20,000 nucleotides of DNA from an uncultured virus (IMG/VR IMGVR_UViG_3300025362_000006). Its lineage: Duplodnaviria > Heunggongvirae > Uroviricota > Caudoviricetes. The position numbers and the translations under genes are program-made. Each line of letters opens with the position of its first letter. Positions within the stretch are counted from its first letter, which is position 1. The notes under the pieces are model-generated. The model had not been told where the DNA came from and searched no databases. It saw only the letters and a list, made by a program, of their open reading frames with translations. The stretch lies in the IMG/VR virus record IMGVR_UViG_3300025362_000006; one strand, given 5' to 3'. This document shows, in pieces, positions 1,054-19,959 of the stretch.

Positions 1054-1261
1054 AAATCGAGCTAGTAATTATTATAATGACTTTGTTGAAACATTTTGTG
1101 TTTATAATGATTTGTTTGAAGGTTGTGTTTCAGTACAAGAAGTATTCGATACCCCGTACCCAGTATATCGAGACATAATATTAACTCAAATAAAACGTAA
1201 GAAAAAACAAAATGACTTGTTGAAAAAACAACAAGCGAATTCACAAAGGCCACAAAAATAA
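1034..1261 (+). CDS. gp51-like / chaperone C-terminal extension, probably made by +1 frameshift from the 154-1053 gene
   Basis: +1 frame (ORF track 797-1261) encodes NYYNDF...SVQEVFDTPYPVY...IKRKKKQN, resembling T4-like gp51 / GT chaperone tails; no ATG with SD after 1053; candidate shift site TTC TTT CGC at 1027-1035. Confidence 0.55.
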   Translation, partial: ASAFLSENRASNYYNDFVETFCVYNDLFEGCVSVQEVFDTPYPVYRDIILTQIKRKKKQNDLLKKQQANSQRPQK

Positions 1262-1328
1262 ATAATAGCATCGAGTAGAGTATTTTAGGAAAGGCCAAAT
1301 TTCAAATTAATAGCAAATATATAGTTTT

Positions 1329-1438
1329 GGCTAATGTTTTTTCTCCTTTTTACATTAGTTAACTCGGAGGCCTCCATGTCTCTCCTGCCTTAAGGTTAGA
1401 CGGGGGTCTCCAACCCCAAACTTTTTTATAAAAGGTTT
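1329..1438 (+). ncRNA. Candidate structured RNA with an anti-Shine-Dalgarno loop
   Basis: Stem 1329-1337/1352-1360 with loop UUUUUCUCCUUUUU; stem GGAGGCCUCC 1366-1375 / GGGGGUCUCC 1402-1411 with inner GUCU/AGAC; stem 1418-1426/1430-1438. G-U pairs favour the + strand. Confidence 0.4.
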
Positions 1439-1476
1439 ACTAATTTTGTACTCCCGATATTAGAATTACAAATTTC

Positions 1477-1493
1477 ATATATAAATATTAATA
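1477..1493 (+). promoter_or_regulatory. Putative phage promoter ATATATAAATATTAATA (copy 1)
   Basis: Identical 17-mer at 1911-1927; about 60 nt upstream of the ATG at 1553. Confidence 0.65.
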
Positions 1494-1552
1494 ATAATGT
1501 TTGGTGATATGTATGTTAACTTGTTATTTTACTTTTACTTAGGAGGTACAAA

Positions 1553-1801
1553 ATGCCAGAAATAATCATTTCAGAAAAAGACCAATTTGATAAACTTGCT
1601 GAGTGGGAAAAGTATGAGTTAATTGAATCCCTTGAGAAATTGAATCGACATGGATCTGTTCAGGTTAAAGTTCGATGTTGTCAGAATCATCAAGGTATTT
1701 CATTTGACCGAGTGGATTCCATTCATTGTCGTTCTGACGAACAAATTGATGGGTCGTATTGTAGCCCGCTTAAACTGTTAAATGTTTTTGATGGATTTTA
1801 A
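1553..1801 (+). CDS. Hypothetical protein, 82 aa, Cys/His-containing
   Basis: Strong SD AGGAGG at 1541-1546; own promoter motif. Confidence 0.75.
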   Translation: MPEIIISEKDQFDKLAEWEKYELIESLEKLNRHGSVQVKVRCCQNHQGISFDRVDSIHCRSDEQIDGSYCSPLKLLNVFDGF

Positions 1802-1910
1802 ATTATTCTGCAATTTTATTGCAGTCTAATCCATGAGTTGGATTTTAAGAAAAATTCTAATTTTACTACTTGGGTTTTCTGTCTCAATTTTGATGATATT
1901 CTCCTTTTTT

Positions 1911-1927
1911 ATATATAAATATTAATA
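1911..1927 (+). promoter_or_regulatory. Putative phage promoter ATATATAAATATTAATA (copy 2)
   Basis: Identical to 1477-1493; 63 nt upstream of the ATG at 1990. Confidence 0.65.
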
Positions 1928-1989
1928 GTGCAGACCATCCTAGTTGGGTGGTTGTGCGATGATATACATTTATTAAAAGGAGAAGTATC

Positions 1990-2265
1990 ATGACTATTGA
2001 GACTATGAATTTAAATAAAGAAACGTTTAGTGACGAGAAACTGACCCGAATTCTGTCCGATATTCATACAGAAGTCAACTGCCAGATGCAGTTGACAACT
2101 CTGACGGGTAAAGCCCGTAGAGCTGAGTGGACTGAACTGAACAATAACCTTATGGAAAAACACATCGTCCATAAGGTTAGAAAACAATACAACGTGTTCG
2201 TTGTATTGTTCTATGAAACAAGAATCCAGTTAGACAAATTGTTTACCTGGATTTGTGGGGGTTGA
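1990..2265 (+). CDS. Hypothetical protein, 91 aa
   Basis: SD AAGGAG; own promoter motif and downstream terminator. Confidence 0.8.
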   Translation: MTIETMNLNKETFSDEKLTRILSDIHTEVNCQMQLTTLTGKARRAEWTELNNNLMEKHIVHKVRKQYNVFVVLFYETRIQLDKLFTWICGG

Positions 2266-2309
2266 TCCCCCAAATAGAAACCCCTGATTTTAGGGGTTTT
2301 CTACTTTTA
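2251..2309 (+). terminator. Tandem hairpins / intrinsic terminator
   Basis: GGGGG 2257-2261 / CCCCC 2267-2271, then TAGAAACCCCT 2275-2285 / AGGGGTTTTCTA 2292-2303 followed by a T-rich tract. Confidence 0.7.
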
Positions 2310-2436
2310 TTTAATCATTGAATTTAGTTAATATTAACCCTGTTTGGGGAATGTATTTTTTTATTTTTCTAAAGAATTTCCAAAATCCGCCGAGGCCAAA
2401 AAAGATAAAACCAAAAATAATATAAGGACACTTAAA

Positions 2437-3000
2437 ATGGCTACCTACACAGAACCAATAGACACAACAGAGGTAACTTTAAGTAGCCTACCACTAACTA
2501 TTCAAAGTCAAATTCCTTATTCAATAAGATCAAGAAAAGATACATACAAATTAGCAAAACTACCAATAAACATTCAATACTTAGTAAAAGAATATATATT
2601 AAGTAAAAAATCAGTTTCATATGATGTAGTTTTCGATACGATGCCTAATATAGTATCTACAGGAGATTTCGAAGTAATAGATAATTACTTCGATTTAGCA
2701 GTAGAATATTTAAAAAACTATTTAATGTTAGCAAAAGGTCAATACCCATTCGATCCATCGTTCTATAGCAAACTAAAATACTACATTCAAACAAGAGATA
2801 CATCAACAAGATACACTTTAGTAAATACTGAAGTAACACGAATAGCAAATGTATTAGCATCAGACTTACACATTCCAATACAAGTAGTAAACGTAGTAAT
2901 AGATAAATCTAGTCCGTCAGGTGTGTCAGTAACATATCATGTTGCAATAAATCTTAAAATCAATAATCAATCGAAACAATTAGGTATTGATGTGGTATAA
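2437..3000 (+). CDS. Baseplate wedge / sheath initiator, T4 gp25 (GPW/gp25)-like
   Basis: YLKNYLMLAKGQYPFDPSFYSKL matches the gp25 pattern (N.L.T..GE.PF.P.FG..L); start reassigned to ATG 2437 behind AAGGA. Confidence 0.7.
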   Translation: MATYTEPIDTTEVTLSSLPLTIQSQIPYSIRSRKDTYKLAKLPINIQYLVKEYILSKKSVSYDVVFDTMPNIVSTGDFEVIDNYFDLAVEYLKNYLMLAKGQYPFDPSFYSKLKYYIQTRDTSTRYTLVNTEVTRIANVLASDLHIPIQVVNVVIDKSSPSGVSVTYHVAINLKINNQSKQLGIDVV

Positions 3001-3027
3001 TTTTATAATTAATGTGGAGATTTTTTA

Positions 3028-3969
3028 ATGTCAAATGATAATATTCATTTTGAACCAAACTTAATAAGTCAATATCAAAAAGAGTATTTAACATTAATTA
3101 ATTATTATACTCAATTGACTAGAAATAGTGTATTTGTAAAATATTTTAACATCAATCTATCAAGCACTTATGACGATAAACTATTTTCAACTTATGATCG
3201 ATATAATGCTTCAGATATTAAATTTAATATCTATGAATATACCCCAATTTATCATATTCAAGCAATTAGTAATCGATCAACATATAGTGAAGACAAAGCA
3301 GGGGATGTACTTGAAGGTGTAAGCAGTATAACAGTAAATACTATTTCTCGTCCAAGAATCAACGATCTTATTTATTTTTATTCTCCAATTCATTCTCAAG
3401 AGATATTTAGAGTTATTAATTTTTCAACAGTTTCAAACATGCTTCACTCTGATCCACCTGTCAACTGGTATGAATTAGATATTGAATATGCCCCAATTGA
3501 AGATATTAATAACTTGACTATTTTCAATCATTATATTTACGATTTATCTATTGAAGAATATTTAACTCTTGAAGATTATAGAACTAAATTAGATAACTTC
3601 AACTTAATTTCAAATATTCTCTTTAGTGCGAAGACATTTTATAATAAAAATTTAGATATTTATTTAACTGACGATAGGTATATACCAATTGATTTGAATG
3701 TTATGATATTTAATTTAAAAACGTCTTCTGATCTTAAAAGTAAATATAAAAAGACTCTTGAACAATATCCAACCCCGTATGGATATACAAAATACATAGA
3801 TTCTGTTATTGCCCCTTATTCAACAACATTATTAGAATTCAATAATAAATTTTTAGTTTACGATTTAGAAGAAAAATTAATTATTGAATATGAATTTGAA
3901 GATATGAAAACACCAATTAATGACTTAGAAAATTTAATTCTGTATGGATATCAATTAATGTCTTTCTAA
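3028..3969 (+). CDS. Putative virion structural protein (neck/baseplate-associated)
   Basis: 313-aa ORF with GGAG SD inside the structural cluster; PRINDLIYF...IFRV pattern recalls head-tail connector beta-barrels. Function uncertain. Confidence 0.45.
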   Translation: MSNDNIHFEPNLISQYQKEYLTLINYYTQLTRNSVFVKYFNINLSSTYDDKLFSTYDRYNASDIKFNIYEYTPIYHIQAISNRSTYSEDKAGDVLEGVSSITVNTISRPRINDLIYFYSPIHSQEIFRVINFSTVSNMLHSDPPVNWYELDIEYAPIEDINNLTIFNHYIYDLSIEEYLTLEDYRTKLDNFNLISNILFSAKTFYNKNLDIYLTDDRYIPIDLNVMIFNLKTSSDLKSKYKKTLEQYPTPYGYTKYIDSVIAPYSTTLLEFNNKFLVYDLEEKLIIEYEFEDMKTPINDLENLILYGYQLMSF

Positions 3970-4003
3970 ACCCCCTAGTTCAATAAGGAGAATTAAAAAT
4001 GTT

Positions 4004-7000
4004 ATGGACCATTCTCAAGTAATTAAATATTTTGATGAATATATAAAAAAATATTCTCCTTACCAAGATAATGAGACTTATTTAGCATTAATGGAGTATA
4101 TAAGTCAAACATTCACAAAAGAATTATATGAAAATATTCCAACTCAATTTAAACAATTGTATGAAGATAACTATATAGATATTGATATGTATGATATTTT
4201 ATTACGGAACATCGGTGTCCCGGATAAGATATTATCTAAATTAAAAATCAATGAAAAAATAATTCTATTTAAAAACTTTACTGATTTTTATCGGTATCGT
4301 GGGGACGTTTATTTTTTTGATAAAGTATCTAAGTTATTTGAGGGGGCAGATACATTATTTGATATTTATGAATTGTATATTGATTATGATGAAGCAATGC
4401 AAGATTGGGTATTTAAACCGTATAAATTAGTTAAAAACACAAATCTTGAGTTATTGACAGATAATATCAGGTACGATCAGATATATGATAACATACCAAG
4501 TTTCTTAATTACCAGACAACAGTTAACTACACATAAAAATAATAAAGAAATAGTTCTTCCAGTTAAATCGAATATTCTTTTATTGGATTACTCATTTACT
4601 TATAATTTAAGTGAGATGATGCACTTAGTGAATGCTACATTCTTAAAACAATATAAGAAGAAAGAAATAACTTGTTATTTTATAGCTGATGAATTCATAT
4701 TTACATTAAGAGAATTTTTTATAATTTGGTATTATATTTTATTACGGTGTTATGATTCATCAATTGGTGACGTCCCCTTACAATGGATAATAGAATACAT
4801 TGATTCAAGTAATCCATATACACTTTCTAATATTGATGAAATATTAGAAGAATATAAATTGGTGACAACTGCTCTTCAAAGTCGAAATTTTTATGAAAAA
4901 TATATAAGTCGTCCATTTAAAAACTTTACATATAGTGCCCCACATGAATCTACAGATTTTGAATATTTGCTTACATCAGATTTTATTGAATACATCGATA
5001 GTAGGATAGTTGAATCTATAATGGACGATAAACAAGTATATAATATTATACTTGATGAATTATTAAATTCATTAGTCTTAGACATTAGTACAACATATGA
5101 TGAATATTATGTAAAATATTCAGAATATTTTATAAACTCGTTAACTCGTATAACTCTTGATCCTAAATTAACTAGTTCATATTTACTAATGCATAACTAT
5201 AAACCTTATCATACTGAATTATTATCAGCATATAATGAACTTATCTTCTCAAATAGTAATTTTGATTTAGCTGCTCCCGATGCTTACAAAGTACAATTTT
5301 TATATGATATGCAGGTTTTAGATAATCTTAATAAAGTGGATTATTATATTACTAATTTTATTTATAATTCTTTTAACGCTTTGACTTTTAATGAAAATAC
5401 TCTTTCGAAATTTGTATTAGAAATTCAAAAAGATTTAGAAATACTTGAAAAGAGTAACTTCAAATATTCTAAGTTTAATATAAGTAATCTTGAACAAGTA
5501 GATGTTAATAAAATTGATGTGGATTTAACACAAATATTTCAACTGTTACCAATTGAATATTCAAAAATAAATACATTACAAAATGCATTCAATAAACTGA
5601 CTGTTGATGGTGAGTTTATTATTAATTATTTGACACAACTCAATTCTACATTTACCTTTTTTGATTATACTATAAAGAAAATTCATAATTTGTTTTCTTC
5701 ATTTAATAATTTAACTGATGTTTCAAAGAGCAATTATAATAACATTTTACAAGATATATTAGAAAAGATTGAGTATACTGTTTTTGAAGTTTTAGGTAAA
5801 ACCTCAGACACATTGTTAACTACAGAATTTTTAGAAACAATTTATAATATATTGTTTAATGTGGTTAACAATATTAGTGAAGATTTAAAAATTGATTATA
5901 ATCAAATTGAACAAAGTGGAAAATCTACAATTAATCACGATTTCAATTTTATAAATTCAAAAGATAAAATATATACATTTAATCTTAGTGAATATATTGG
6001 TATAGGTAAACTAAATATTGGTGACAAAGTAAAATACATACACGATGATGATGTTCATTACGGAGTCATAAAAAGATTTGAAAGTGATCATATTAAATTA
6101 GCATCTGAGTATACAGGATCAACTATTTCTGGTCAACTAATGAAACAGTCTTCACCAGTACTAGATATTGTAGGACGAATATCTTTGAGTGCAGTTAAAC
6201 TTATTGACTCACTATTAACTACAGAGTTCTTAACGCTCATTCAAAATATATTCCTTACAACTGTTCACACTACTGAAGACATTTCTAATATTAATTCTAC
6301 TAAAATATTTGAACTTTCATTAGAAAAAAGTGAATCAATATTATTTGAACAATTGACAAATTTAATTGACAGTTTAAGTATTTCCGACTTTGAACACTCT
6401 AAACTCAAACTTCAAGTAGTTAAATTGTTGTCCCTTTATGATCAGGCAATTTGTAAGTATATGGTATATGGTTCTGAAGTTACCGATTTATTAGATGAAC
6501 AAGGAACTACAGATTTTAAGAAACAAATATTAGATAAATTATTATCAACAGAGTTCTTAAATTCAATTATAAATATATTTTATACGACATTTAATAATAT
6601 TGATGATAGTTCAAGTAGTAATTTTTTTCAAATTGAACAAAGTGGAAAATCTACAATTAATCACGATTTCAATTTTATAAATTCAAAAGATAAAATATAT
6701 ACATTTAATCTTAGTGAATATATTGGTATAGGTAAACTAAATATTGGTGACAAAGTAAAATACATACACGATGATGATGTTCATTACGGAGTCATAAAAA
6801 GATTTGAAAGTGATCATATTAAATTAGCATCTGAGTATACAGGATCAACTATTTCTGGTCAACTAATGAAACAGTCTTCACCAGTACTAGATATTGTAGG
6901 ACGAATATCTTTGAGTGCAGTTAAACTTATTGACTCACTATTAACTACAGAGTTCTTAACGCTCATTCAAAATATATTCCTTACAACTGTTCACACTACT

Positions 7001-7414
7001 GAAGACATTTCTAATATTAATTCTACTAAAATATTTGAACTTTCATTAGAAAAAAGTGAATCAATATTATTTGAACAATTGACAAATTTAATTGACAGTT
7101 TAAGTATTTCCGACTTTGAACACTCTAAACTCAAACTTCAAGTAGTTAAATTGTTGTCCCTTTATGATCAGGCAATTTGTAAGTATATGGTATATGGTTC
7201 TGAAGTTACCGATTTATTAGATGAACAAGGAACTACAGATTTAAAAATTGCTCCGTTTACTGATTTGTTGTCATCAACAGAATTTTTAAGTTTAGTTTAT
7301 AATTTAATTTTTTCTTCACTTAATATTATTGTTGATAAGTCAAATACTATTTATCAACAGGCTGCAACTGATAGCCAAACAATATTAGAGGAGATTTTAA
7401 TTTTTCAACTTTAA
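4004..7414 (+). CDS. Large baseplate wedge protein (P2 gpI / T4 gp7-like N-terminus) with a repetitive fibre-like C-terminus
   Basis: LFKNFTDFYRYRGD..FFDKV..LF and YKPYHT motifs typical of gpI/gp7-like wedge proteins; C-terminal half has 18-aa periodic repeats and a duplicated ~205-aa block; SD AAGGAG. Confidence 0.6.
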   Translation: MDHSQVIKYFDEYIKKYSPYQDNETYLALMEYISQTFTKELYENIPTQFKQLYEDNYIDIDMYDILLRNIGVPDKILSKLKINEKIILFKNFTDFYRYRGDVYFFDKVSKLFEGADTLFDIYELYIDYDEAMQDWVFKPYKLVKNTNLELLTDNIRYDQIYDNIPSFLITRQQLTTHKNNKEIVLPVKSNILLLDYSFTYNLSEMMHLVNATFLKQYKKKEITCYFIADEFIFTLREFFIIWYYILLRCYDSSIGDVPLQWIIEYIDSSNPYTLSNIDEILEEYKLVTTALQSRNFYEKYISRPFKNFTYSAPHESTDFEYLLTSDFIEYIDSRIVESIMDDKQVYNIILDELLNSLVLDISTTYDEYYVKYSEYFINSLTRITLDPKLTSSYLLMHNYKPYHTELLSAYNELIFSNSNFDLAAPDAYKVQFLYDMQVLDNLNKVDYYITNFIYNSFNALTFNENTLSKFVLEIQKDLEILEKSNFKYSKFNISNLEQVDVNKIDVDLTQIFQLLPIEYSKINTLQNAFNKLTVDGEFIINYLTQLNSTFTFFDYTIKKIHNLFSSFNNLTDVSKSNYNNILQDILEKIEYTVFEVLGKTSDTLLTTEFLETIYNILFNVVNNISEDLKIDYNQIEQSGKSTINHDFNFINSKDKIYTFNLSEYIGIGKLNIGDKVKYIHDDDVHYGVIKRFESDHIKLASEYTGSTISGQLMKQSSPVLDIVGRISLSAVKLIDSLLTTEFLTLIQNIFLTTVHTTEDISNINSTKIFELSLEKSESILFEQLTNLIDSLSISDFEHSKLKLQVVKLLSLYDQAICKYMVYGSEVTDLLDEQGTTDFKKQILDKLLSTEFLNSIINIFYTTFNNIDDSSSSNFFQIEQSGKSTINHDFNFINSKDKIYTFNLSEYIGIGKLNIGDKVKYIHDDDVHYGVIKRFESDHIKLASEYTGSTISGQLMKQSSPVLDIVGRISLSAVKLIDSLLTTEFLTLIQNIFLTTVHTTEDISNINSTKIFELSLEKSESILFEQLTNLIDSLSISDFEHSKLKLQVVKLLSLYDQAICKYMVYGSEVTDLLDEQGTTDLKIAPFTDLLSSTEFLSLVYNLIFSSLNIIVDKSNTIYQQAATDSQTILEEILIFQL
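5902..6516 (+). repeat. Direct repeat, copy 1 (615 bp)
   Basis: No mismatch found by eye versus 6628-7242; offset 726 bp = 242 codons, in frame. Confidence 0.95.
6628..7242 (+). repeat. Direct repeat, copy 2 (615 bp)
   Basis: Identical to 5902-6516; separated from it by a unique 111-bp spacer. Confidence 0.95.
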
Positions 7415-7510
7415 CAGATAGAGTTAAATGTCTGAATTTTATAATGTAATGTAATTTATTAACAACATTGTTTAAATATCAATCAATCAATATAGGAGAA
7501 ATTGTTATCC

Positions 7511-8161
7511 ATGGACCATATCATAACTAATACAGATGATTATAAAATTTTTGATAAATTGGGGTCAAATAAAAAACCTGGACCAAAAGGTTGGGTGAGA
7601 GCGTTTCTTCATAAAAACCCTAATTTTCTTGGAACCCCTTTTTTTGAAGGTGAAAATTTAATTGTTGGTAACGGTAGAGAACTTGTTGGTCAACGAATCT
7701 TTAATGTTGCTTCACCAGGGCATACTTGGACAAGTTATACAATTTCAGATTTTGGAGTAGGAAGTGGTGGTGCAACAGTTAGTGACGGTACACCAATAAT
7801 TGCTGACCCTACACTCGATGATGTAGGATTAAATAATCCAATTACATTAAGTTCAGCATACGATGCTGAAAGTAGCAGTAGTACAACAGGGGTAATTAAA
7901 CCAATTACAACAGATGGTTCAATTACATTAATGGATGGTGAATATGGAACTAGTACTTACTATTCAAAATCTAAATGTGTCTGTGTAGTTGATGCAAGTG
8001 AACCTACAAGTTTAGGGGCAGGAGAGTCACAACAAATTTCTGAAGCCGGCTTGTATTTTACAAGTGGATCGACAAATGTAATGTTTTCACATATCTGTTT
8101 TGCTCCTAAATGGAAAGAATCTGATAGTATATTAACTATTGAATGGTATATTATTTGTTAA
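7511..8161 (+). CDS. Tail-fibre collar / baseplate-fibre attachment protein (P2 gpH N-terminal domain-like)
   Basis: NLIVGNGRE, FGVGSG, ISEAGLY, MFSH..F.P..K....LTIEW motifs characteristic of this family; start may instead be TTG 7502. Confidence 0.65.
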   Translation: MDHIITNTDDYKIFDKLGSNKKPGPKGWVRAFLHKNPNFLGTPFFEGENLIVGNGRELVGQRIFNVASPGHTWTSYTISDFGVGSGGATVSDGTPIIADPTLDDVGLNNPITLSSAYDAESSSSTTGVIKPITTDGSITLMDGEYGTSTYYSKSKCVCVVDASEPTSLGAGESQQISEAGLYFTSGSTNVMFSHICFAPKWKESDSILTIEWYIIC

Positions 8162-8214
8162 ATTGTTTTCTTAAAATATAGACAATAATAATCGTTATTA
8201 AGGAGTTTTTTATT

Positions 8215-9660
8215 ATGATTACTGATCGTCGAGAGCCGGGAGTATATGTATCAATCGAAGACTTGAGTTATGTTGCAGCTAACCCTAATGTGGGAAGGTC
8301 TGTATATTGTGTAGGGGTCTGTAAAAAGGGCCCTCACAATCGAATAGTTCAAGTAACTTCACAATCTGAGTTTCATACAACTTTTGGGAAACCAAATTTT
8401 TATGAAACTAGTAAATCTCATTATCATATGGACAAAGCAATGCAATATTCCGGTAGAGGATATTATGTTCGCCTTTCTCCAGATGATGCAATTCAAGCTT
8501 GTGCATTGGTTAAACAATCTAGTTCTGTAGAAAGTGAATTAGTAAGTGAAATTGCACATACATTTACTTGGGCAGCCTCTGCAACTTTAGTTTGTGCTAC
8601 TGATTGTTCTGCTGCTGTAAATGTTGGAGACTGGATATTTAGTGCAACTGAAGCTGCTGCTGACTATCAGTATGCAAAACAAGTACTTACTATATTTGTT
8701 GAATCTGATGGTTCTACAACACTCACATTAGATTCTGCTTATGCTGGAACAATTGGTGATGCTCAAGCGTTTAAATTTGTTCCTTATGAAACTGTTACCA
8801 ATACAGGTTGGGATACAGGTCTTGAATTACCTGACACTACTGCTGACCTGGACACCGATGTTGTGTATGGTTTCTATGCAACTGGTGCTGGTGCTTTTTA
8901 TAATGATTATAAAATTAAAGGTGCCCGTAATGTTGAATTAGAAAGAATGTATGTTGATGATGAAGGTCTTGCAAAATACAAATATTTGTTCATGAATGTT
9001 GCTATTTATAGAGTTAATGATGATTTGACTGAATCTATGATTGAAGGTCCTTGGGTAGTATCATTAACTGATGAAACTCCAGACGGTATTCGAATTCGTG
9101 ATTTGTCAAGTGGACAGCCGCTTTATATTGAAGATATTATTAATGATAATAGTAAATTGATTCATTGTTGTGTAGGTTCAGCAATGCAAGATCTACGATC
9201 TTCTGTTAGTGCAACTAAAACGACTGAACTTCGTAAACAAATTATGATGATACTTAGTGCTGGTCAGCCTGCTGCTACGTCTTTTATCGTTAGCGACACT
9301 ACTGGGGTCCAACTCGGTAGTGGTTTTGATGGCACTACGGATGGTCAGGGAGACAGTGCAAGTCTTCCGCTTTATAATGACACAACTGGGTTTGTTAATG
9401 TTGATACTAATATTGATGCACTTGCAGCTCAAGCATATAATTGTAGTTTAACTAGTGTTGATGGGTCTATCGGGCAGATGAGAGAAGTAACTTATCCTGT
9501 TTACCAACCTGATTATATTCTTACTGGTGAATGGTCAGCAGCTACTCAAAATTCTGGTCGTTATCTTGCAGATCTTCGTCAAGATTGCATTCATCTTGGT
9601 GATAGTACATATAACACTTCATATACTGCTGATCTGGATTCCCGACTGAATGATGTGCCT
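8215..9660 (+). CDS. Tail sheath protein, exon 1 (joins 9947-10552; spliced product 683 aa)
   Basis: N-terminal PGVYVSIEDLS, KGPHN, EFHTTFGKP sheath motifs; frame ends at ...LNDVP exactly at the intron 5' splice site. Confidence 0.92.
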
Positions 9661-9946
9661 TAATATCTAGGGCCATATATCGGTGACGATATATGATAAT
9701 TTCTTTAATTGCTGGAAACTCCTAAGATTTAATATGATATATTAAATTGGACAATCAGCAGCAAAGATCTACATAAATTGTAGATAATGTTCAACGACTA
9801 TCCCAGACATGGGAGTAGAACACAAGTGTGTTCGAAATAGGAAACATCTATTATTAGATGAAGATATAGTCTATTCTTATAGGAAACTATAAGCAATCTT
9901 TATTTAAAGATTGAAATAAAATTAACGATTTTATTTTAATACAAAG
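9661..9946 (+). ncRNA. Self-splicing group I intron, subgroup IA-like, no homing endonuclease ORF
   Basis: P1 with U9660-G9670 wobble; P AATTGCTGGAAA 9707-9718, Q AATCAGCAGC 9753-9762, R GTTCAACGACTA 9789-9800, S AAGATATAGTCT 9861-9872; P2, P7.1, P7.2, P8, P9 hairpins; terminal G9946; removal restores the reading frame. Confidence 0.95.
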
Positions 9947-10552
9947 TGGAATAACTGGACATCAGCTCTATATTGTCAATTCCGAAAACGGAGAGATGAA
10001 TACACTGGACAGAAGATGATTGTGAGTCCATGCTATCATGCTATTGAGAATCATTTAGTTATTGATGGTAATTACTTCCTTGGTGAGCCTGTTGCAGGTA
10101 TTGAGAAAGGTGCAATTGCAGAACCAATTGAACTTGTTTATACAGCTAACCATACAGAGCGTGGAGATTTGGGCGATGCTGAATTGAATCTTACAATTGT
10201 TGAACCTGAAGGTAAATATTTTCTTACTCAATTTACTACCTGGAAACGTTTGAGTATTTTGAAGAGACTTCATGCTGCTAAGTTTGTTACATTTGTTAGA
10301 AAATCACTTCCTCCTCTATTGAAAGATTTACTTCAGAGGAAAGGTACAAATTTCTGGATTAAACAGGCGAATGCTAGAGTTACTTACTTTCTTTCAAAAT
10401 ATATTGGATCTGAAGTCGAAGCACTCAATATGTTAACATCTTTTTCTGTCAATGTTGAGTTTGACGAGATTGCTTCCGAGTTAAATGTTTATGTTGGTTT
10501 GGCACCTGTGCGGGTGATTGAGAGAATCAATGTATATATTGCAGTGAGCTAA
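9947..10552 (+). CDS. Tail sheath protein, exon 2
   Basis: WNNWTSALYCQFRKRRDEYTGQK continues in frame into ORF 10016-10552; ends ELNVYVGLAPVRVIERINVYI, a typical sheath C-terminus. Confidence 0.92.
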   Translation, partial: WNNWTSALYCQFRKRRDEYTGQKMIVSPCYHAIENHLVIDGNYFLGEPVAGIEKGAIAEPIELVYTANHTERGDLGDAELNLTIVEPEGKYFLTQFTTWKRLSILKRLHAAKFVTFVRKSLPPLLKDLLQRKGTNFWIKQANARVTYFLSKYIGSEVEALNMLTSFSVNVEFDEIASELNVYVGLAPVRVIERINVYIAVS

Positions 10553-10611
10553 GAACATTTTCAACAATTAGAAATTTATTAAAATCCATTTATTGAGGAG
10601 ATAAATATATT

Positions 10612-11490
10612 ATGGGTGATTCAGCAACTAATATTGTAAGTCGATTAGCTACACGCTTTGACAATGCAATTCTTGATCGGGATAAACCTGATTATATAAC
10701 TAGAGATATTGGTGGACATTTTAGAAAAAATAATCCGTATATTGGAGGTTATTTTCAAGTTGTATTTGGTCTTCCTGAAGAGTTACTTGGTAGTGGTGAA
10801 GATGCAAAAGTAGCATCTCAATGGCTTCATAGTACTTGTGAAGGATTTACTCCCCATACTCAGACAAACAACTTTGTTGAACTTATGGGGCAAGGTCAGA
10901 TTGGCTCTTCATTTGTTAGTGGAGTAACAACTAATCGTGAATTTACAATGACGTTTAGAGAATATCAAAATCTTCCTATATTGAATATTATAAAGAGATG
11001 GTGTAGCGTGTTCGATAATTTTACCGGCACGTCGCCTTTGGACGGAAATCGATTCTTACCGATCAATTATAAAGGTTGGTGCGCGGTTGCACAAACTAAA
11101 CCTGTACGATCAAAAGATGAAGATTTAACTATTGACGATATTGAAGAATGTTATATTTATTCTGGAGTTATGCCTGTTGCAATTCCTCTTGATGGATTAA
11201 ATTCAGATATAACTTCAAATGAATCTGTACAACATTCTGTATCATTTAAATTTGATAATTCTCCTTTGACTTCTGCTGAACCTGGAGTTACAGCAAAAGT
11301 TGTTGAGTTACTTGCTGGTATGAGGACAATGGGTACTGGTGCAAGTAATGATTCTAATTCTACTTATAACCGTTATTGGTCTCGTGGTACTGGTGGAGAA
11401 ACTTCTCAGTGGGGTACTCATGATGGTGAAGTAACAAGTATCGTGACCCCTGATGCTGAATCTGGTAAACCTAGTCGAGTAGTAGTATAA
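10612..11490 (+). CDS. Tail tube protein (T4 gp19-like fold)
   Basis: Directly follows the sheath; FTMTFREY..LPI..II.RW, YIYSGVMP and SVSFKFD patterns typical of tube proteins; SD GAGGAG. Confidence 0.8.
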   Translation: MGDSATNIVSRLATRFDNAILDRDKPDYITRDIGGHFRKNNPYIGGYFQVVFGLPEELLGSGEDAKVASQWLHSTCEGFTPHTQTNNFVELMGQGQIGSSFVSGVTTNREFTMTFREYQNLPILNIIKRWCSVFDNFTGTSPLDGNRFLPINYKGWCAVAQTKPVRSKDEDLTIDDIEECYIYSGVMPVAIPLDGLNSDITSNESVQHSVSFKFDNSPLTSAEPGVTAKVVELLAGMRTMGTGASNDSNSTYNRYWSRGTGGETSQWGTHDGEVTSIVTPDAESGKPSRVVV

Positions 11491-11549: not shown

Positions 11550-12746
11550 TTAGTTCAATGTACCAGTACACTGAGAAAATATTTCTCGAACATCCTGCTG
11601 AGTGAGTGTTGCATATTTCTTTGTTGGAGGATCGACAACAGGAGCCAATTGTGGTGGGGCTACAAATGATGGAGCAGTTGGTTTATTGATGGTGTAATAA
11701 TATTTATTTGGAATAAATGAAAGAGGCAAACCCTCTGGTAAAGAGGCAAAATTTGGAGCACCAGGTTCAGGTAGAGTGATTGATGGTCTTTTCGGCAAAA
11801 TTGGACCCCCAAGCCCTTGAACTTGACCTCCTTGAATATACTCTGGAGGAGTGCCTTTAAGTTTTGCAGGAACGATAGTTTCATGACCACAATCAGGACA
11901 CTCAGTCGAAGTTTCATAATAATCTGCATATTTCGCGTCAAATCGTCCTGTACTTGTATTGAGTTCATCTAGACAACCTCGACATATAACGTGGTACATA
12001 TTAAGATTTTCACAAAACTTCATTTTAACTGTTCCACAATATCTGCACATTGGTGGTTCACAACAATCAAATAATACATTTTTAATTCGTTCATTTTTTG
12101 ATGCACTTTTAGGCAAATAATTAGTTGCCCAAATCAATGATTTCTTAAAAGTTATTGATTTATTATTTACAATTATAAGTTCTTTATTTTTAAATATTGA
12201 AGATTTATTTACTAATGACAAATCCTTATTTTTGAAATTGACTGTTGTGTTAAACGTTCGAAGGCCTTTAACATCTAAATTGGTCTTATCTTCCATATAT
12301 TTAATTAATTCTATTCTATGATCAATCATAGAAATTGTTTTCTTTATTTCTGAATTGAATTTAATATATCCCCAGTCTTCTGCATAATACTTACAAATTA
12401 ATAAAGATTTTAAATTCCCTCTAAATACATTAATTAATTCTTCTTTTAGATCCATAGGAATATCATGATTATCATAGTTTTTCATATCTACCTGAAAAAC
12501 TGGATGGGTATCTAAATGGAAACCAAGATAATATTCTTGAAACCCAAGTTTAGTCATAAATACCAATTTAGAATTCATATCACTACCAGTCAGTTGGCTA
12601 CATACAATATCGTCAAATACCAATTCATCTGAGTCAAAATGTTTCACTAAATGATATCCAATCTCAATCATTTCAGATACCTGGTTACGATCTTTCAATG
12701 CCAATTCAAGTACATGTTCGTTAGTAATACTGTCAATTAATTCCAT
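11550..12746 (-). CDS. Hypothetical protein with Zn-finger motifs and a Pro-rich C-terminus
   Basis: CRYCG...CRGC and CPDCG motifs; SD GAGGA; own promoter motif. Confidence 0.75.
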   Translation of the reverse strand: MELIDSITNEHVLELALKDRNQVSEMIEIGYHLVKHFDSDELVFDDIVCSQLTGSDMNSKLVFMTKLGFQEYYLGFHLDTHPVFQVDMKNYDNHDIPMDLKEELINVFRGNLKSLLICKYYAEDWGYIKFNSEIKKTISMIDHRIELIKYMEDKTNLDVKGLRTFNTTVNFKNKDLSLVNKSSIFKNKELIIVNNKSITFKKSLIWATNYLPKSASKNERIKNVLFDCCEPPMCRYCGTVKMKFCENLNMYHVICRGCLDELNTSTGRFDAKYADYYETSTECPDCGHETIVPAKLKGTPPEYIQGGQVQGLGGPILPKRPSITLPEPGAPNFASLPEGLPLSFIPNKYYYTINKPTAPSFVAPPQLAPVVDPPTKKYATLTQQDVREIFSQCTGTLN

Positions 12747-13853: not shown

Positions 13854-14288
13854 TTACTCAAATATATGAGTATAACTAGCACAATTATTTTCAGTCTCGT
13901 AAATTTGTATTGTTATCTCTTTTAAGTCTTTTATTTTGTTCTTAAACATTGCTTTTGCAACTGCACAAAATATAATTGCCATCCGTTCAGCGGTTGTTGG
14001 ATGTGGCCAGACTAAATATTTAAATCCGTTCTTTTTAACAAATTCAATAAATTTAATATCACTCTTTTCAATAATACAAGCATGATCATATTTACTATCG
14101 AAGAAATCTTGAAATTCTTTTAAATGGGTAAAATCAATTATCATGTGCTGTTCATTTAAGCTCGATGCTTTAATTTTCAGAAACACTTTATATGAATGTC
14201 CGTGAATGTTCTTACATGGACTATCATAATCAAGACAATTAAGTCGATGACTTGCTTCGAATTTGAATTTTTTTTCTATGCTATACAT
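13854..14288 (-). CDS. queD: 6-carboxy-5,6,7,8-tetrahydropterin synthase (PTPS family)
   Basis: FEASHRL, CKNIHGHSYKV, IDF..LK, YDHA, PTTAERMA, ETENN are canonical QueD motifs. Confidence 0.95.
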   Translation of the reverse strand: MYSIEKKFKFEASHRLNCLDYDSPCKNIHGHSYKVFLKIKASSLNEQHMIIDFTHLKEFQDFFDSKYDHACIIEKSDIKFIEFVKKNGFKYLVWPHPTTAERMAIIFCAVAKAMFKNKIKDLKEITIQIYETENNCASYTHIFE

Positions 14289-15125: not shown

Positions 15126-15797
15126 TTATTTTTGATATTTAATTGGGTCTACTTTACCAAGACTAGCGAATGCTTCGAGTCTTTCATTGCATGATCCACA
15201 TCTTCCGCAGGAGAGCTCTTGATCTTTGTAGCACGTGCGTGTCAATTGATAAGGGACAACAAATTCTTCTGGAAGTTCACAACCAATTTTCAATATTTGA
15301 GTCTTATCAATATTTAAAAATGGTGCAAGAACACCAACTTTACCGTCACTAGATTTGTTAATAGTAGTTTTAAGACTCTCTATAAACTCAGGACGACAAT
15401 CAGAGTAAATGTGATGATCCCCAGCATGAACACCAAGTGCAATATGAGTTGCATCAATTGATTCAGCATAACCAGCAAGGATAGACGCAAAGATTAAATT
15501 CCGTCCTGGAACGACGGTAGTTTTCATATTTTCATCTTCGTAATGACCTTCTGGAATATCTCCACCAGATTTTAATAGATCCGATTCAAACATATATTCA
15601 ATAAAGTTTAAATCAATTGTTGGAAAGACATCAATTCCATAATAATCACAAAAGTGGATTGCACATGTTCTTTCATATTTGTTATGTTTTGATCCATATG
15701 AAAAGTTAACTGGACATACTTCATGACCTTTCGCAAGATAATATCCAAGCATCGTACCTGAATCCATTCCACCACTTAAAGAAAGTACAATTTTCAT
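15126..15797 (-). CDS. queC: 7-cyano-7-deazaguanine (preQ0) synthase
   Basis: PP-loop SGGMDS, YGSKH, TVVPGRNLIF, YSDCRPEF, TRTCY...CGRCGSC.ER Zn motif; start reassigned to ATG 15797 behind GAGGAG. Confidence 0.96.
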   Translation of the reverse strand: MKIVLSLSGGMDSGTMLGYYLAKGHEVCPVNFSYGSKHNKYERTCAIHFCDYYGIDVFPTIDLNFIEYMFESDLLKSGGDIPEGHYEDENMKTTVVPGRNLIFASILAGYAESIDATHIALGVHAGDHHIYSDCRPEFIESLKTTINKSSDGKVGVLAPFLNIDKTQILKIGCELPEEFVVPYQLTRTCYKDQELSCGRCGSCNERLEAFASLGKVDPIKYQK

Positions 15798-15967
15798 TTT
15801 TTCTCCTCTTCTTTTTGGTAATACTCGCCATTTGTATGTTGTAACCAATCACCAACTTTTGCATTTGCTCTTATTCTACAATGAAAACAAACATTCTCTG
15901 GTATTGAATAATGTTCTTGAGGGGACTGACCTTGTACGATTACTCCACCACATTTAATGCAATTCAT
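15794..15967 (-). CDS. Small Zn-ribbon protein, 57 aa (not in ORF track)
   Basis: MNCIKCGG...VCFHCR... (two CxxC); SD GGAG; ATGA overlap with the queC start. Confidence 0.75.
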   Translation of the reverse strand: MNCIKCGGVIVQGQSPQEHYSIPENVCFHCRIRANAKVGDWLQHTNGEYYQKEEEKK

Positions 15968-19942: not shown

Positions 19943-19959
19943 TATTATTATTTATATAT
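19943..19959 (-). promoter_or_regulatory. Putative phage promoter ATATATAAATAATAATA (copy 5)
   Basis: 16/17 match to the 17-mer; 84 nt upstream of ATG 19859. Confidence 0.6.

Follow-up and report, generated by a model that had tools for sequence, protein, structure and literature searches.

Gene 1990, a small gene inserted among the structural genes of an uncultured phage, is preceded by a long inverted repeat in which the 5' arm is complementary to the gene's own ribosome-binding site (RBS), with a 17-nt promoter-like motif in the loop between the two arms. The hairpin formed by these arms probably hides the RBS of gene 1990 on RNA that reads through from upstream. We consider it likely, with some room for doubt, that gene 1990 is an accessory gene that is locked on read-through RNA and translated only from a transcript of its own. 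The window analysed here, a stretch of 20,000 nt, is AT-rich phage DNA (30% G+C) and part of a 93,658-bp metagenomic contig.

Genes 1553 and 1990 lie in a segment of 1,175 nt (1262-2436, plus strand) that carries these two small genes, each of them with its own copy of the promoter-like motif. In all five of the closest IMG/VR relatives (L008-L012), a homologue of gene 154 (31-45% identity) with a +1-frame extension ORF is followed by a homologue of gene 2437 (39-43% identity). The gap between the two is about 5-60 nt in four of the five, and L011 has a different small ORF at this position; in 10 of 13 more distant loci the homologues are adjacent as well. Since the flanking structural genes are joined directly in relatives, we conclude that 1262-2436 is an insertion. 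The initial annotation had described genes 1553 and 1990 as inserted accessory genes, which is borne out by the junction without them in 5/5 relatives. The G+C content of the small genes (0.35 for gene 1553 and 0.39 for gene 1990) is higher than that of their neighbours (0.25-0.31). The same annotation had placed both genes inside a virion operon. This description is plausible, as a tail sheath (8215-9663, plus strand; PHROG E 1.9e-15) and virion proteins (plus-strand genes starting at 7502 and 10612; profile matches) are encoded downstream, but the annotation of the region is thin: 2437-3000 (plus strand) has a weak baseplate match (E 0.0068), 154-1053 has no annotation, and a PDB sequence search with the neighbouring genes gave nothing below E 0.1.

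The product of gene 1990 (1990-2265, plus strand) is a 91-aa protein with four homologues at 79-84% identity, two of which are encoded on the contigs L002 and L003. Identity of the gene by codon position is 85/92 at second, 78/92 at first and 65/92 at third positions. The protein is modelled as three helices (pLDDT 70.7); it has no match in Pfam, PHROGs or PADLOC, a fold search gave no match at E <= 0.001, and its Atlas features score of 0.80 is at chance level. Gene 1553 (1553-1801, plus strand) encodes an 82-aa cysteine-rich protein without a family match. An intrinsic-terminator-like hairpin with a T run follows gene 1990 (2277-2300, plus strand) and is conserved in L002 and L003, and another terminator-like hairpin with a T run lies upstream of the first motif (1403-1417, plus strand). 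No terminator-like site was called between the two genes (1801-1881), and RNA starting at the first motif should therefore carry the 5' arm of gene 1990. Read-through is likely for the same reason, and also because the stop codon of the upstream gene in L003 is located 7 nt before the stem.

The 5' arm (1881-1908, plus strand) was identified by folding, by alignment to 1975-2003 and by its conservation in L002 and L003. Its core, 1894-1908, is the complement of the Shine-Dalgarno (SD) sequence, the spacer and the A of the AUG, and its outer part, 1881-1893, is the complement of codons 2-5. The 3' arm (1975-2003, plus strand) comprises the SD sequence GGAG (1979-1982), the AUG (1990-1992) and codons 2-5. 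When 1881-1908 is reverse-complemented and locally aligned with 1975-2003, there are 25 matches, 3 mismatches and one gap, corresponding to a bulged G1985, which confirms the earlier count of 25 complementary positions out of 28 plus a bulged G over SD, start and first codons. In a repeat search the inverted repeat extends further, to 1881-1922 and 1962-2003. The 17-nt motif (1911-1927, plus strand; TATAAATA core at 1914-1921) begins 2 nt past the 5' arm, in agreement with its description as starting right after it. Directly 3' of the motif is an inner G+C-rich hairpin, which had been proposed at about 1933-1953 and occupies 1928-1957 (plus strand), a span that includes the proposed one.

The RNA 1870-2015 is predicted to fold into one long composite hairpin of about 56 pairs in four helices, with the inner hairpin as helix 4. 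The computed energy is -52.6 kcal/mol (z -7.1), and none of 200 dinucleotide shuffles folded as well. The arm/RBS duplex of gene 1990 has an energy of -29.3 kcal/mol (z -6.6; 0/200 shuffles as good). The same duplex test was applied to 21 gene starts of the window, the 22nd lying too close to the window end; for the other 20 starts the z values range from -2.4 to +1.9, and none comes near gene 1990.

As the cost of opening the RBS we calculated the free energy needed to make the region from -14 to +5, relative to the start codon, single-stranded. When the RNA starts at 1800 or 1875 and includes the arm, this cost is 22.7 kcal/mol for gene 1990. For RNAs with 5' ends at 1927-1934, positions that assume a box near -10 with the spacing found in T4, it is 4.4-4.9 kcal/mol. 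The initial annotation had proposed a comparison of long and short transcripts, and the predicted drop for a 5' end past the motif (22.7 down to about 4.5 kcal/mol) agrees with its expectation. The homologues in L002 and L003 behave similarly, with opening costs of 26.5-27.6 and 15.2-16.6 kcal/mol, respectively, for long RNAs versus 5.5-7.0 and 2.4-2.6 kcal/mol for short ones. As a benchmark, the identical computation on T4 gene e (NC_000866) gives 15.7 kcal/mol for the long RNA versus 4.0 and 1.2 kcal/mol for short RNAs. When the cost for a leader starting 60 nt upstream is subtracted from that for a leader starting 150 nt upstream at 21 gene starts of the window, the difference is 18.3 kcal/mol for gene 1990, 4.6 kcal/mol for gene 1553, and between -2.5 and +1.6 kcal/mol for the other 19 genes. 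The mean unpaired probability of the stretch from SD through AUG is 0.125 in the long RNAs versus 0.43-0.49 in RNAs starting at 1925-1940; in the short RNA this stretch is thus no more than about half unpaired, which counts against our reading.

The hairpin is kept in both close relatives, L002 and L003. Pair 1895-1989 is G-C in the window and in L002, and A-U in L003, a compensatory change. Two substitutions in L002 favour pairing: C1885U, by which a G.U pair forms, and G1892C, which allows a pair where there was a G-G mismatch opposite the AUG. L003 lacks the outer arm but retains a 13-pair core over SD and AUG. In the three-sequence alignment 92% of the cells are paired, versus 42-51% with the partners slid, and two pairs are changed on both sides; of the 12 pairs of the inner hairpin, one has two-sided and two have one-sided changes. 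The covariation suggested as a check in the initial annotation is seen in part: pairing is kept and one pair is compensated, but with only three sequences the covariation score is equalled by 95 of 500 shuffles. Sequence identity of the arm core is 15/15 in L002 and 14/15 in L003, where the one change is compensated, and that of the 17-nt motif is 17/17 and 16/17. Taken together, arm core and motif are identical at 32/32 positions in L002 and 30/32 in L003, compared with 65/92 and 68/92 of the third codon positions of the gene. The higher conservation than at synonymous sites points to selection on the non-coding block.

This conservation bears on the idea that the inverted repeat is a non-functional leftover, either of an inverted duplication of the gene start or of a divergent gene that once had its RBS here. 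Read on the minus strand, the arm indeed gives an SD sequence plus ATC in the window and an SD sequence plus ATG in L002. In addition, a degenerate 23-nt arm-plus-motif pattern, found in viral contigs at unrelated loci only (L006, L036-L040), is the RBS of a real divergent ORF in four of the six matches. However, the minus-strand frame is not conserved: the window has 22 codons of it and no start, L002 has 46 codons that begin with ATG and run antisense to the upstream gene, and L003 has none. Homology also ends at the arm; beyond it the alignment scores 16, whereas shuffled sequences average 18.5 and reach 28. The arm as the remnant of an inverted paralog start (ATG to ATC), which the initial annotation had named among the findings that would refute its reading, was rejected on these grounds. 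The second cassette of L002 and L003 described below appears, from reading by eye rather than from computed translation, to be without a plausible minus-strand gene, and neither the conservation above synonymous sites nor the compensatory pair is expected of a leftover. We regard this origin as improbable, and a hairpin that acts on the RBS remains our preferred reading.

A second exact copy of the 17-nt motif is located upstream of gene 1553 (1477-1493, plus strand), and a motif search found a copy with one mismatch at 19943-19959 on the minus strand. All four exact sites of the 11-mer ATATATAAATA, and one site with a single mismatch, lie between genes in the sense orientation. The starts that follow these five sites, 1553, 1990, 13203, 12746 and 19859, are 59-91 nt away, and the four sites with upstream sequence inside the window are all situated downstream of hairpins. 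The motif sites share no -35 block. Allowing for at most one mismatch, the motif has 11 matches versus 5.4 expected, a modest enrichment that is reached by 7 of 200 shuffles; six of the 11, all with one mismatch, are not upstream of a gene.

The recurrence of the motif helps to weigh a second explanation, in which no transcript starts inside the hairpin and the motif is not a promoter, the structure serving instead as a constitutive attenuator or a site of RNA processing. The helix would then keep a possibly harmful small protein at a low level. Either a trans-acting factor would open it or a double-strand-specific RNase such as RNase III would cut it, in which case the gene-1553 RNA would also gain a stabilising 3' hairpin. 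With 25 pairs in the outer helix and about 56 in the composite stem, the structure is long enough for RNase III, and the motif is a putative promoter of which the TATAAATA region is partly base-paired in the predicted fold. Against this explanation, the motif is found exactly at 1477 and nearly exactly at three more intergenic sense sites, two of which have no lock, and it is more conserved than synonymous sites. Moreover, two unrelated leaders both have a hairpin that directly follows the motif, which is what transcript starts at this place would predict. We consider an attenuator or processing site unlikely, and the motif between the arms a putative promoter.

As to the class of promoter that the motif would represent, we lean slightly towards an early or middle promoter rather than the class that serves structural genes. 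The motif is absent before the seven downstream structural-module starts (2437 to 10612), which may share a promoter outside the window, and a gp55-type sigma factor was not found among the scanned proteins of the window and of L001; both observations make us lean in this direction. The gp55 family phrog_234 was likewise found in none of the five relatives' contigs, in a search that had no working positive control. Occurrences of TATAAATA in the spacer between the homologues of genes 154 and 2437 in L008, L011 and L012 were considered as a structural-gene promoter and rejected, as they are inside a conserved coding frame. The early or middle class is also favoured by the motif copy upstream of the window's first minus-strand gene (start 19859), whose cluster also includes the Que genes further downstream, by the AT-rich early promoters of jumbo phages, and by polymerase genes in a distant relative. 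This relative, G004 (285 kb, 95% complete; L042 and L043), the most complete of the distant ones, has two RNA polymerase beta-like ORFs with Rpb2_6 matches (E 5e-40 and 1.5e-22), which suggests that the wider group may include jumbo phages with their own multisubunit RNA polymerases.

We hypothesize that the lock works as follows. RNA entering from upstream, either from the gene-1553 motif or by read-through of the operon, would carry the 5' arm 1881-1908. As soon as the SD sequence is transcribed it would pair with the arm, and the composite hairpin would bury the SD, the AUG and codons 2-5, so that ribosomes would be unable to start on arm-bearing RNA. The 17-nt motif between the arms may act as a promoter that does not need a -35 box. 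RNA started at about 1927-1934 would be without the arm, and would have a protective 5' hairpin and an accessible RBS; the inner hairpin 1928-1957, then located at the 5' end, may stabilise this short transcript. If the motif is of the early or middle class, the lock would silence gene 1990 on late read-through RNA. Because both adjacent promoters share one motif, the lock cannot separate genes 1553 and 1990 in time, and it would matter only for RNA from further upstream or for bicistronic RNA.

The initial annotation had seen the same layout, with a different arm, at gene 1553. We find an arm, the motif and an RBS there, but the arm is situated about 20 nt upstream of the motif and the pairing is within reach of chance. 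The weak candidate arm (1443-1455, plus strand) pairs with 1542-1554 through nine Watson-Crick pairs, one G.U pair, a 1x1 mismatch and two G-C pairs; its duplex energy of -15.0 kcal/mol (z -1.3) is matched by 19 of 200 shuffles. With the arm, opening costs about 10-11 kcal/mol, and without it 3.9-6.1 kcal/mol; the homologue of gene 1553 in L003 has neither motif nor arm. Locks at the motif-bearing minus-strand genes 12746 and 13203 were rejected, with differences of 0.0 and 0.3 kcal/mol; the upstream region of the fifth motif gene, 19859, runs off the window. The lock on read-through RNA that had been proposed as a repeated architecture is thus supported at gene 1990, where the hairpin is beyond chance and conserved and accessibility drops, but it is weak at gene 1553 and missing at 12746 and 13203.

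Recurrence of another kind is found in the close relatives. In both L002 and L003, a second copy of arm core plus motif follows the terminator of the gene-1990 homologue, in an extra cassette that spans 779-1245 in L002 and 912-1354 in L003. The order of elements is arm core, motif, a different G+C-rich hairpin, a second hairpin and a complementary RBS; L002 and L003 differ at one pair of the second hairpin by a compensatory change from G-C to A-U. The cassette precedes a membrane-protein gene, the protein being different in L002 and L003, and its RBS has an opening cost of 7.8-9.3 kcal/mol in long RNAs versus 1.8-4.0 kcal/mol in short ones. The 35-nt block of arm core plus motif is invariant in all five cassette copies of the three genomes. 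In the window a remnant of a third cassette was identified at 2327-2345 (plus strand) by comparison with L002 and L003: between TTAATA microrepeats it lacks the 33 nt that correspond to arm core and motif, the gene behind them is gone as well, and the sequence runs straight from the remnant to gene 2437. Viral contigs yielded no match for the exact 38-mer, for gene 1990 or for gene 154 as a single protein. The lock thus seems to belong to a portable regulatory cassette that resembles the PeSLs of T4-type phages.

These data could also mean that the conserved block acts mainly at the DNA level, as a PeSL-like recombination cassette in which RBS pairing is incidental, since any CUCC-containing block pairs with any SD sequence. 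The presence of the 35-nt block at two loci in L002 and L003, with different genes behind the second copy, fits this explanation, as does the loss in the window of exactly this block between microrepeats, along with the downstream gene. It leaves unexplained, however, why the outer arm 1881-1893 is gene-specific and matches codons 2-5, and why the change at 1895-1989 is compensatory. As the main role of the block we judge it to be the least probable of the alternatives, marginally behind a non-functional leftover, and a DNA-level function would not exclude the lock.

Returning to the lock, we tentatively extend it to a broader proposal that we hold possible but doubtful: arm core, motif, 5' hairpin and RBS may together form a portable insulating cassette of a jumbo-related lineage, with the motif as an early promoter for a phage polymerase. 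If so, the polarity of the lock would be opposite to that of T4 gene e. Early accessory genes would sit in a late structural operon and remain untranslated on the late polycistronic RNA, and the cassette would travel with accessory genes, its RBS part being the consensus RBS.

The closest known systems are the T4 genes e (lysozyme), soc, 49, I-TevI/II/III and segB and the Aeh1 gene mobE, for which leader hairpins that sequester the RBS and are bypassed by an internal promoter have been described (PMC3014915, PMC2988022); for T4 gene e a repression of roughly 100-fold is reported (PMC3014915). As in T4, the hairpin at gene 1990 is predicted to bury SD and AUG when the RNA begins upstream of it, a TATAAATA-type box is located inside the structure, and the gene's own RNA would be without the 5' strand, if the box is the promoter that we take it for. 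The opening costs are of similar size (15.7 versus 4.0 and 1.2 kcal/mol for T4 gene e, 22.7 versus 4.4 kcal/mol here), and, as with the T4 homing-endonuclease genes, the regulated gene is inserted and looks dispensable. There are also pronounced differences. The T4 e leader region has about 16 pairs and -19 kcal/mol, whereas the stem here has 25 pairs plus further helices around a 66-nt structured loop, with -52.6 kcal/mol. The whole promoter-like motif and a 5' hairpin lie in this loop, whereas the T4 promoter overlaps the 5' strand, and gene 1990 is part of a structural module and not of an early region. T4 late (gp55-dependent) promoters have a TATAAATA box at about -10 and precede structural genes; in the window the motif, with its box at 1914-1921, precedes genes 1553, 1990, 12746, 13203 and 19859 and none of the seven downstream structural-module starts. 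T4 kinship was not detectable, as 50,697 phage records yielded a match neither by DNA nor by tail-sheath protein.

PeSLs are described as promoter-terminator motifs of T4-type phages that act as mobile regulatory cassettes (PMC2839356, PMC4122927). Similarly, in the three genomes compared here a short promoter-containing block with stem-loops flanks variable accessory genes and marks differences in gene content. The block carries an anti-RBS strand, which PeSLs are not known to have. Jumbo phages with multisubunit RNA polymerases have highly conserved AT-rich early-promoter motifs of about 10 nt centred near -10; these are located upstream of presumed early operons and can be found bioinformatically, and the late promoters cannot (PMC7598289). 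The distant relative G004 has the two polymerase beta-like ORFs given above, but no enrichment of the 11-nt motif was seen across the five relatives.

A further parallel is offered by morons, which are autonomous promoter-gene-terminator units inserted between phage structural genes; the classical examples come from temperate phages, where the prophage expresses them. Gene 1990 resembles them in having its own promoter-like motif, a terminator and a higher G+C content, and in being absent from the junction in relatives. It differs from classical morons by the proposed additional translational lock, which would insulate the gene from the surrounding operon.

The regulatory design has thus been published for T4 e, soc, 49 and I-TevI, and there is nothing fundamentally new in the mechanism. 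What sets the present case apart is the very long stem, the occurrence in a phage without detectable T4 kinship, and the cassette-like recurrence. The T4 promoter-in-hairpin device would accordingly not be confined to T4-like phages, and phages may more generally use it to shield newly acquired genes from the operon around them. Because the hairpin is unusually strong (18 kcal/mol by computation between long and short RNA) and the cassette recurs in front of unrelated genes, the system lends itself to a clean test, and it is a possible design for synthetic gene insulation within operons.

Several other features of the window were observed. A hairpin at 1331-1358 (plus strand) has an 11-pair stem (-8.8 kcal/mol) and a 14-nt loop, UUUUUCUCCUUUUU, which is the perfect complement of the phage's usual RBS, AAAAGGAGAA. 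About 40 nt around this hairpin are identical in L003 though non-coding, and it may be a second anti-SD element. The sequence TTCTCCTTT occurs seven times in the window, compared with 0.23 expected. Upstream of the insertion, a 69-codon frame (1054-1261, plus strand) follows the stop of ORF 154-1053 in the +1 frame without an ATG, GTG or TTG start. It is conserved as a protein in the five distant relatives L008-L012, and could be read by +1 frameshifting at the stop or from an unusual start.

A group I intron (9651-9893, plus strand; Rfam RF00028, 98.7 bits, E 2.5e-26, full-length model match) is located at the end of the tail-sheath ORF 8215-9663, and ORF 10016-10552 looks like the remaining part of the sheath gene. 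The 1136-aa ORF 4004-7414 (plus strand) contains a long internal tandem duplication with repeats near 6282 and 7008; the copies are about 726 nt apart and encode near-identical segments of about 240 aa. The minus-strand half of the window contains, besides many unknown ORFs, a QueD-like gene (13854-14288, minus strand; E 2.6e-26) and a QueC-like gene (15126-15848, minus strand; E 4.3e-61), which suggest that the phage may carry a 7-deazaguanine modification of its DNA.

Finally, sequences related to the window were found in two large CRISPR arrays (L004 and L005) with a 37-nt repeat, which have 109 and 49 repeats and 107 unique spacers; L005 and the window's contig share their source metagenome. 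The DNA beside the CRISPR array has about 41% G+C and an adjoining radical-SAM-like ORF, with no cas gene in the flank examined, and a host search for the 37-nt repeat in genome contigs gave no match. Three distinct spacers match the plus strand of the window, with no common PAM evident. Two of the matches overlap in the 5' part of gene 1990 (2017-2049, 30/33 identical; 2026-2046, 20/21 identical), and the third is located in the QueC-like gene (15441-15475, 34/35 identical).
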